From: an uncultured Candidatus Rokubacteria bacterium
GTDB lineage: Bacteria > Methylomirabilota > Methylomirabilia > Rokubacteriales > CSP1-6
DNA: 64,000 bases
Direction of reading: 5' to 3'
Assembly: GCA_963747235.1 (NCBI GenBank)
Contig: CAVVEU010000033.1
Coordinates: 32,001 to 96,000 of the forward strand
In this document: positions 20,292 to 21,014 of the stretch, one piece after another
How the letters are laid out: every line of letters starts with the position of its first letter
How positions within the stretch are numbered: the stretch's first letter is position 1
Made by a program: the position numbers and the translations under genes
The notes under the pieces: generated by a model
Database searches by the model: none
What the model was told of the DNA's origin: nothing
Seen by the model: the letters and a program-made list of their open reading frames with translations, nothing else

Positions 20292-21014
20292 TCAGGACGC
20301 GGGTGGGTCGGGGGTTCCCATCCAGAACGGCGAGGTCTTGCCGATCCGCTCGAGATAGGCCCGGCGCTCCGCGGCGCGGCGTGGATACCACGACGAGAGA
20401 TAGTCGCCGTCCAGCATGTGCCGGCGGCTCTCGGTGCCGAAGAAGCCGACCAGCTCCGTGAGGGAAATGAAGCCTTGCTCCGACCGCGGCTCGAACTGGC
20501 TCCAGCGCCGCGCATGCTCTTCCGACCGGAAGAGGTTCATCCCGGTTCAGAGGTAGTACGATCGCCCGCGCGACGACCCGAACCCGAAGGCGAGATGGCC
20601 GATGATGGAGGGCGGATCCACCCAGGTGACGCGCCCGTCGCGCATCTCTACCGTGACGGGGTCGCCGCAGTCGAGGCACGACGCGTCCACCCGGACGGTC
20701 TCGCCCGGGAACAGCCACGTCGCGGACGTGGCCTCGAACCCGCACTGGGCGAACCAGCGCTGCTCTCCCCGCACCGTGATCCGGTACTGGGTGGGCAGGT
20801 TGTTCAGCGGCGGGAACGAGGCGATGTAATCGGTCTCGGGATGGAGCCAGCCGATCGGGTACGCCTGCATGACGTCGCGCAGCAGGCTCCGTCCTTCCTC
20901 GGCGGCCAGGCCGAGGGCCCGCGCCAGCTCCGCGTAGTGCGGGGCCCGGCCGGTGTCCACCAGAGTTCGCATGATGCGCTGGAACGCTTGATCCATCAGT
21001 TGCGTGTCGGACAT
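20292..21014 (-). CDS. MerB (organomercurial lyase)-like protein, predicted selenoprotein (in-frame UGA at 20547-20549, residue 156 of 240)
   Basis: N-terminal HTH-like segment, FAQCGFE, SCLDCGDP, then YYL-UGA-TG-MNLFRSEEH in the same frame. Hairpin immediately 3' of the UGA. Confidence 0.75.
20514..20540 (-). promoter_or_regulatory. Putative bacterial SECIS element
   Basis: mRNA reads AUG-AAC-CUCUUCC-GGUC-GGAAGAG-CAU: 7-bp perfect stem with a G-initiated 4-nt loop that starts after a 19-nt spacer from the UGA. Confidence 0.65.

Follow-up and report, generated by a model that had tools for sequence, protein, structure and literature searches.

An in-frame UGA, probably read as selenocysteine, at the second metal-ligand position of a MerB-superfamily gene in Rokubacteria and related loci

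We analysed a 64,000-nucleotide stretch of DNA from an uncultured Candidatus Rokubacteria bacterium (assembly GCA_963747235.1, contig CAVVEU010000033.1, positions 32,001 to 96,000), hereafter the window, with position 1 at its first letter. On the minus strand of the window, two open reading frames (ORFs), 20547..21029 (160 aa) and 20292..20540 (82 aa), lie in one and the same frame and are separated by TGA, ACC and GGG, after which an ATG follows. Does this locus hold two genes, one broken gene, or a single gene whose TGA is translated? An earlier reading of the letters without database searches (the sequence-only reading) had proposed a MerB-like lyase in which the TGA, residue 156 of 240, sits at the position of the second catalytic Cys of MerB and encodes selenocysteine (Sec). 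Our results indicate that the segment 21014..20295 (minus strand) is very probably one 240-residue MerB-superfamily gene with UGA 156 read as Sec, and comparison with related sequences gives us high confidence that the predicted selenoprotein gene is genuine.

The predicted coding sequence (20295..21014; this and all features of the gene given below are on the minus strand) starts with the ATG at 21014-21012 and stops with the TGA at 20294-20292, which is directly followed by a second in-frame TGA (20291-20289), forming a tandem TGA TGA. Counted from this start, the read-through product is 240 residues long, and the internal TGA (20547..20549), the predicted Sec codon, is codon 156. A GGGGAG sequence 5 nt upstream of the ATG (21020..21025) reads as a putative Shine-Dalgarno-like motif. 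Every detail of the split that the sequence-only reading had described, two same-frame ORFs parted by TGA and two codons, is present in the sequence, and its view that the break is not an indel holds: the break is a substitution-type codon. The same TGA recurs in the 20 of 20 and 79 of 79 related loci described below.

We then asked to which family the read-through product belongs. The 246-residue read-through translation used as the profile-search query (P0001) matched the Pfam MerB family PF03243 at 60.2 bits (cut-off 27 bits, E 2.5e-16) over residues 78-194, a span that runs across the TGA. A phmmer search of the PDB returned MerB2 5c17 at E 1.5e-7 and MerB 3f2g and others at E ~6e-4, and in the HMMER alignments to these solved MerB and MerB2 structures Cys91, Glu94 and the TGA fall on MerB Cys96, Asp99 and Cys159, the TGA also lying on the equivalent Cys of MerB2. 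The placement of the UGA on Cys159 by the sequence-only reading is thus borne out by alignment. Cys91 (TGC, 20742..20744), the equivalent of the first metal ligand Cys96, is invariant in a 24-sequence alignment (A3). Glu94 (GAG, 20733..20735) occupies the Asp99 position, is nearly invariant in A3, and is encoded by GAG or GAA in 75 of 75 genes. The FAQ-C-GF-E segment, which had been proposed to supply the Cys96/acid pair, does align over MerB Cys96..Asp99; the correction needed is that the acid is Glu, not Asp. With Cys91 matching Cys96, Glu at the Asp99 site and a TGA (predicted Sec) at the Cys159 site, the predicted triad is chemically analogous to that of MerB and not identical to it. No model in NCBIfam release 20.0 reaches its own cut-off on the MerB-like protein.

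An AlphaFold2 model computed from a 24-sequence alignment had a mean predicted local distance difference test (pLDDT) value of 89.1, with pLDDT <50 in residues 147-153 only; mean confidence was also lower across residues 141-160. Comparison of this model with the PDB by Foldseek placed MerB or MerB2 structures at all of ranks 1-11 (E 4e-12 to 1e-7), and rank 12 had an E of 0.5. The closeness of Cys91, Glu94 and Sec156 in space rests on the sequence alignment to MerB.

If the TGA were a chance interruption, it should not be kept among relatives. A full-length match with exactly one internal TGA was found in this assembly (G000) and, at 78-93% identity, in 19 further genomes from its genus or family; all 20 orthologs have 240-241 codons, begin at the aligned ATG and carry TGA as codon 156. 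In genome records, scanned with a pattern that demanded Cys at column 91, TGA stands at column 156 in 79 of the 79 loci that reach this column among the best 80 of 142 confirmed relatives; the 80th (L107) stops short of it at a contig end. By their titles, the TGA-bearing records belong to Methylomirabilota/Rokubacteria, Chloroflexota, Actinomycetota, Nitrospinota, Tectomicrobia, Pseudomonadota and delta-proteobacterial metagenome-assembled genomes (MAGs), and those at 43-55% identity are titled Dehalococcoidia/Chloroflexota, Acidimicrobiia, Candidatus Poriferisodalis, Nitrospinae, Tectomicrobia, Burkholderiales, Rhodospirillaceae and delta-proteobacterial MAGs. Such title-based lists need care, because mis-binned contigs or wrong labels are likely. 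In a sample of the phylum, a relative at E <= 1e-20 was present in 41 of 151 genomes (G068 included), and TGA occurred once or more in every full-length match; a single match lacked it, and that one spans residues 2-143 only.

As a separate observation, Rokubacteria-type copies 80-92% identical to the window gene occur in MAGs titled Nitrosotalea, Nitrosocosmicus, Verrucomicrobiia, Dormiibacterota, Limnocylindria and Deferrimicrobiaceae (L056, L059, L061, L064, L072, L096 and others). These are probably mis-binned contigs or wrongly labelled records.

Coding selection was compared on the two sides of the TGA in the 18 of the 20 orthologs that have exactly 240 codons. The ratio of nonsynonymous to synonymous substitution rates (dN/dS) was 0.140 for codons 1-155 and 0.150 for codons 157-240 (153 pairs), and third-position variability was 0.73 before and 0.68 after the TGA. 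The equal dN/dS on either side indicates that the downstream part is translated in this frame. Protein databases present a different picture of the gene, since 118 of the 120 homologs among the matches listed end exactly at column 155; among the best 150 representatives of clusters at 50% identity, 22 stop at column 155 and 11 start at 157-159. These ends and starts are the footprint of gene callers stopping at the conserved UGA, and the two fragments that such programs had been expected to report are what the databases hold.

We next looked at which residue replaces the TGA where it is absent. Six distant full-length homologs with 23-47% identity (P0129, P0140, P0146, P0217, P0232 and P0264) have Cys at both columns 156 and 91, and no homolog examined has Trp, Arg or any other residue at column 156; it is TGA or Cys throughout. 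This was the outcome that the sequence-only reading had named as the test of its proposal. A search limited to residues 150-240 yielded 5 proteins, of which only P0002, a single 217-aa sequence with an internal deletion, is a plausible close Cys form. P0123, P0124 and P0125 match part of residues 150-240 only. P0006 was rejected as a Cys form, since it reads another frame across the TGA; along with P0165 and P0183 it is an artefactual chimera with a frame switch across the TGA region.

The relationship of the Sec and Cys forms was viewed in a tree built by a quick method from 64 rows, comprising 56 of the 79 wider loci (chosen at <80% identity, plus L050, L055 and L062), the window protein, L039 and the 6 Cys forms. 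The Sec forms cluster, and the Cys form P0129 falls inside the Chloroflexota Sec group with a Shimodaira-Hasegawa-like approximate likelihood ratio test (SH-aLRT) value of 92, a moderate support that was not starred. No direction of change between Cys and Sec is drawn from this tree because the Cys rows have long branches.

Insertion of Sec in bacteria is directed by a selenocysteine insertion sequence (SECIS), and a SECIS-like hairpin had been noted just 3' of the UGA. Past this codon the mRNA runs ACCGGGAUGAAC and then CUCUUCC-GGUC-GGAAGAG (20517..20534), an upper hairpin with a perfect 7-bp stem and a 4-nt loop that encodes L161-F-R-S-E-E166. The accessible part of a 2026 catalogue of prokaryotic selenoproteins (PMC13188914) gives the constraints on a bacterial SECIS (bSECIS) as a loop of 3-9 nt, an upper stem of 4-16 bp, a G in the first two loop positions, a UGA-to-loop spacing of 16-37 nt and a minimum free energy (MFE) no higher than -7.5 kcal/mol. 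The window hairpin lies within all of these limits, with its 4-nt loop beginning GG, its 7-bp stem, a spacing of 19 nt and an MFE of -9.1 kcal/mol, so that the SECIS-like character ascribed to it earlier agrees with the published model. Taken alone, the hairpin had a z of -2.55, and 1 of 200 shuffles folded as well. Its 18-mer occurs once in the 5.57-Mb genome, at the MerB-like locus, and is therefore not a dispersed repeat.

The stronger argument comes from codon use. The comparison took in 75 genes and 60 columns, each column with a conserved residue whose codons are degenerate. The sole columns with a single codon were Leu161 (CTC, 75 of 75), Arg163 (CGG, 75 of 75) and Ser164 (TCG, 71 of 71), all within the hairpin, and Glu165 was GAA in 72 of 73 genes, although GAG outnumbers GAA by 887 to 238 across the same genes. 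At other Leu, Arg and Ser columns 2-5 codons occur, the most frequent making up 53-85%. Across 73 distinct sequences, 97.8% of the upper-stem cells pair, and the same hairpin, with wobble or single-base changes only, is kept in paralogs down to ~25% protein identity; the peptide NLFRSEE is absent from the Cys-containing homologs. In two loci (L118 and L123) one stem pair has changed from C-G to U-A through a synonymous TTC->TTT and a non-synonymous GAA->AAA (E165K) substitution. This pattern shows an RNA-level constraint acting on the predicted hairpin. What lies beyond chance is the conservation of the TGA (20/20 and 79/79) and the invariant hairpin codons.

A genome that reads UGA as Sec also needs the machinery to do so. 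Contig C14 of this assembly carries selB, selA and a tRNA-Sec within ~5 kb (SelA 500 bits; SelB wing domain 73.8 bits; tRNA-Sec 69.3 bits, with anticodon TCA as given by ARAGORN), and selD lies on contig C27 (227.8 bits). All four genes whose presence the earlier proposal called for, selA, selB, selC and selD, are there. Counting G000, selD was found in 12 of 13 genomes of the genus (11 of 12 without it) and is in one piece in the relatives. Eleven of those genus genomes have an in-frame TGA inside selD itself, in one of two copies; this copy in the relatives is therefore itself a Sec-type SelD. The genome further contains an FdhA-type formate dehydrogenase gene (G000:C8, ~590.6-593 kb), periplasmic and with a twin-arginine-type leader, that has a TGA at 591273 in the context HQARV-TGA-HSATV and, 17 nt from the UGA, a downstream SECIS-like hairpin whose second loop base is G. 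Judged from these features, it is a predicted canonical selenoprotein gene of the genome. Among the tested genomes of distant carriers of the MerB-like gene, 5 of 5 had SelA, vs 2 of 14 control genomes. Of 3012 open frames with 500 codons or more, 1938 terminate in TGA, which makes it the commonest stop codon, and it also ends the MerB-like gene. As TGA is the usual stop, that of the MerB-like gene included, the recoding is local and the code has not been reassigned. Taken together, the TGA/Cys column, the agreement of the hairpin with the bSECIS model and the Sec machinery favour the view that this UGA would encode Sec, as the sequence-only reading had held.

Several results weigh against this interpretation, most of them concerning the hairpin. 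In its 60-nt context (~71% G+C) the fold is no better than that of shuffles (z -0.25), and because of this the stability of the hairpin is not in itself beyond chance; with the fold energy unremarkable in context, the argument for the hairpin rests on evolution. That evolutionary backing is one of invariance, not of compensatory change. The first 27 sequences (23 distinct) showed no covariation, and in the larger set of 87 sequences (73 distinct), which contains the one C-G to U-A double change, covariation was weak, its double-change cells being matched by 23 of 500 shuffles and its score by 91 of 500. The hairpin codons also encode a motif related to one found in all MerB proteins, and no Rfam family matches the hairpin region. 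A possible lower stem, CCGG.AUG ... CAU.G.CGG (20508..20545; RNAfold -15.7 kcal/mol, z -2.04), is not established: with 65.8% and 74.8% of cells paired, it did no better than shuffled or slid controls and was rejected. Finally, both selD copies of this assembly are split across reading frames (G000:C27:46033-46945 and G000:C8:303114-303868). These splits look like indel errors, and other frame breaks are evident in the assembly.

Such frame breaks raise the thought that the TGA is a nonsense mutation or a miscalled base in an ordinary Cys-type merB-like gene. A pseudogene or an assembly error would not, however, produce the same TGA in 20 of 20 and 79 of 79 independent assemblies, nor equal purifying selection on both sides of it, nor the stop at the same column in 118 of the 120 listed homologs, and the break is a substitution-type codon without an indel. 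Conservation of the TGA and dN/dS effectively refute this explanation, and its remaining probability is negligible. Another way to account for the locus is a split gene, in which a 155-residue N-terminal fragment and an 82-residue C-terminal part, made from AUG159 by restart or coupling, perhaps associate. In keeping with this, and against decoding as Sec, an ATG does lie two codons past the TGA, Met159 is nearly invariant in alignment A3, and gene callers list the two pieces separately. Yet the residue lost through a split would be the very one that full-length homologs fill with Cys and that serves MerB as a catalytic ligand. In the distant loci L043, L044, L046 and L047, moreover, the place of the ATG is taken by CTC (Leu, no start) while frame and hairpin continue. 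Restart also leaves unexplained the frozen synonymous sites of the hairpin and the presence of SelA in the carriers, and we consider a split gene very improbable.

Continuity of the frame alone does not name the inserted residue, and a full-length, selenium-free protein could also arise by SECIS-independent read-through, with a near-cognate tRNA (Trp, Cys or Arg) or Cys carried on tRNA(Sec). Against this stand the fit of the hairpin to the bacterial SECIS model and its nucleotide-level conservation across phyla, the complete Sec machinery and other selenoprotein genes of the genome, and the Cys found at this column in homologs, which makes a classic Cys/Sec pair. Read-through of this kind has a slim chance of being correct. 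In the Sec reading, which we prefer, SelB carrying Sec-tRNA(Sec) with anticodon UCA would be recruited during translation by the hairpin CUCUUCC-GGUC-GGAAGAG, and UGA codon 156 would be decoded as selenocysteine instead of causing termination, the true stop being the TGA TGA at 20294-20289.

What such a protein might do is suggested by its likeness to MerB, in which Asp99 is the proton donor. By alignment, the Sec156 selenolate and the Cys91 thiolate would be the two metal ligands, and Glu94 would replace the proton-donating Asp99. The enzyme would then cleave a carbon-metal bond, by analogy with organomercurial protonolysis. On this analogy we infer that MerB-like lyase chemistry is most likely, with the metal held between Cys91 and Sec156.

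The surroundings of the gene give this functional proposal no help. The MerB-like gene lies between a RidA/L-PSP-like ORF, whose stop (21028-21026) is 11 nt upstream of the MerB-like ATG, and a zinc-type (ADH_zinc_N, quinone-oxidoreductase-type) dehydrogenase gene that starts 35 nt past the stop codon; an AMP-binding acyl-CoA synthetase gene is further upstream, all four genes are co-directional, and the order is kept within the genus. These neighbours have no relation to mercury. Across 27 distant loci no conserved neighbour emerged (the largest cluster of flanking ORFs comprised 6 of the 27, from one clade), and no MerA above cut-off was found in the genome, the best match scoring 299.9 vs 454 bits in an assembly that is 88% complete. 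The Glu in place of the catalytic Asp likewise counts against the proposed function. The unrelated neighbours and lack of MerA place the gene outside the classical mer operon and the SAO locus discussed below; mer context was judged by the MerA search and the flanking genes, and no search was made for merR, merT or merP.

Other features were seen near the gene and elsewhere in the window. A perfect 10-bp inverted repeat, CCCTCTCCCC-AGA-GGGGAGAGGG, occupies 21034-21056 (minus), a short way upstream of the MerB-like start at the RidA-like ORF's 3' end; weak, chance-level Rfam hits pile up on it. Molybdopterin-oxidoreductase-family genes are located at 16278-17774 and 32266-33579 (plus strand); the frame around the former is very long, with an Arg/Pro-rich translation upstream.

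Some relatives of the window gene carry two TGA codons. TGA occupies both the Cys91 column and column 156 in L039:1504-2214 (the same place as L143), L040:6-479 and L144, and each first TGA has its own hairpin ~17 nt downstream. Among the best cluster representatives, 33 of 150 end exactly at column 90, which suggests, by the position of these ends, that there may be many two-TGA forms. The accessible parts of the literature searched describe no MerB-type enzyme with Sec at both metal-ligand positions. The loci L043, L044, L046 and L047 mentioned above (family f4, from the same order) are MerB-like paralogs at ~25% identity whose first motif, C-C-A-I-D, looks canonical and which carry a TGA at the Cys159 column. 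The hairpin after their TGA is nearly the same, TTCTTCCGGTCGGAAGAG, with variants in L043 and L047, and encodes NFFRSEE or NFFRSED.

How does the window gene relate to systems already described? That MerB-like selenoproteins are known had been stated in the sequence-only reading, and SaoL (NCBIfam NF040728) is one. From the accessible part of its description, SaoL has Sec, preceded by Cys, at the Cys159-equivalent position, belongs to a nine-gene SAO locus, and is carried exclusively by anaerobic taxa (Haft & Gwadz, bioRxiv 10.1101/2022.07.06.499078). In the portion of the 2026 catalogue available, it is the one MerB-like entry, listed with a CU motif (PMC13188914). The two proteins share the MerB superfamily (PF03243), the alignment of Sec with MerB Cys159 and routine truncation at the UGA in databases. 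They differ, however, in several respects. P0001 scores 37.3 bits against the SaoL model, whose cut-off is 140 bits, and does so over residues 19-142 of its 246 only; the window protein has Leu155-Sec156-Thr157 and no CU dipeptide, as do all 20 orthologs; and its acid residue is Glu, that of SaoL being Asp. The immediate neighbours of the window gene are an acyl-CoA synthetase, a RidA-like and a zinc-type dehydrogenase gene rather than a nine-gene SAO locus (the SAO family models were not searched), and its carriers are, by record title, soil, groundwater and marine MAG lineages.

With MerB (3f0o, 3f2f, 1s6l) and MerB2 (5c17) the window protein shares the fold (Foldseek template modelling scores of 0.57-0.70, normalised to the target), the N-terminal helical domain and core, the first ligand Cys and, at the second ligand site, an analogue of Cys. 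Identity is ~20-22%, and unlike these enzymes the window protein has predicted Sec for Cys159, Glu for Asp99 and ~35 extra C-terminal residues with a long helix (205-223), its gene stands without a mer operon, and MerA is missing from the genome at the cut-off used. The canonical MerB models NF033555/NF009710 are not reached (29 vs 200 bits and 33.7 vs 193 bits). The hairpin, too, resembles the bSECIS model as far as the accessible text of PMC13188914 sets it out, being a coding-region stem-loop placed just 3' of the UGA, its loop small and opening with GG, its spacing 19 nt and its MFE < -7.5, and departs from it in a nucleotide conservation that is unusually strict, down to ~25% protein identity.

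In the portions of the literature that the search reached, only SaoL turned up as a MerB-like selenoprotein, and supplementary tables or BSepDB may list the window subfamily. The available main texts of deep-Sep, BSepDB, GOS and the 2006 and 2016 surveys do not describe it, and an earlier listing in a supplement is possible. On the sequence evidence, the window gene is a distinct variant within a known kind, the MerB-like selenoproteins, and belongs to a different subfamily from SaoL. We give roughly even chances to a broader proposal, in which it represents an uncatalogued MerB-superfamily selenoprotein family spread over several phyla, with the signature L-U-[TSA]-x-M-N-L-F-R-S-E-E-H. Sec would be the normal second ligand of this family (in Methylomirabilota, Chloroflexota, Actinomycetota, Nitrospinota and Proteobacteria), a frozen SECIS would dictate NLFRSEE, and sister forms would have Sec at both ligands (U-x-x-E/D ... 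U), making a bis-selenolate site.

If this is correct, the substrates of such enzymes may be organometals or organometalloids outside the classical mer set. The finding also bears on annotation, as the 118 of 120 listed homologs that are cut at the Sec codon would lack a catalytic ligand and ~85 residues, and NCBI-sourced entries carry the name "organomercurial lyase" at 155 aa. It would add a MerB-type selenoprotein outside the anaerobe-restricted SaoL system, in abundant uncultured lineages that record labels assign to soil and groundwater. A Cys/Sec or Sec/Sec site with a Glu acid would be a natural experiment on the MerB mechanism. Hg-Se binding is very tight, which raises the question of how product would be released in spite of it, or whether another organometal is the substrate. 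Lastly, one SECIS strictly conserved over proteins whose identity falls to 25% would give an exceptionally clear example of how an RNA element can constrain a protein motif.

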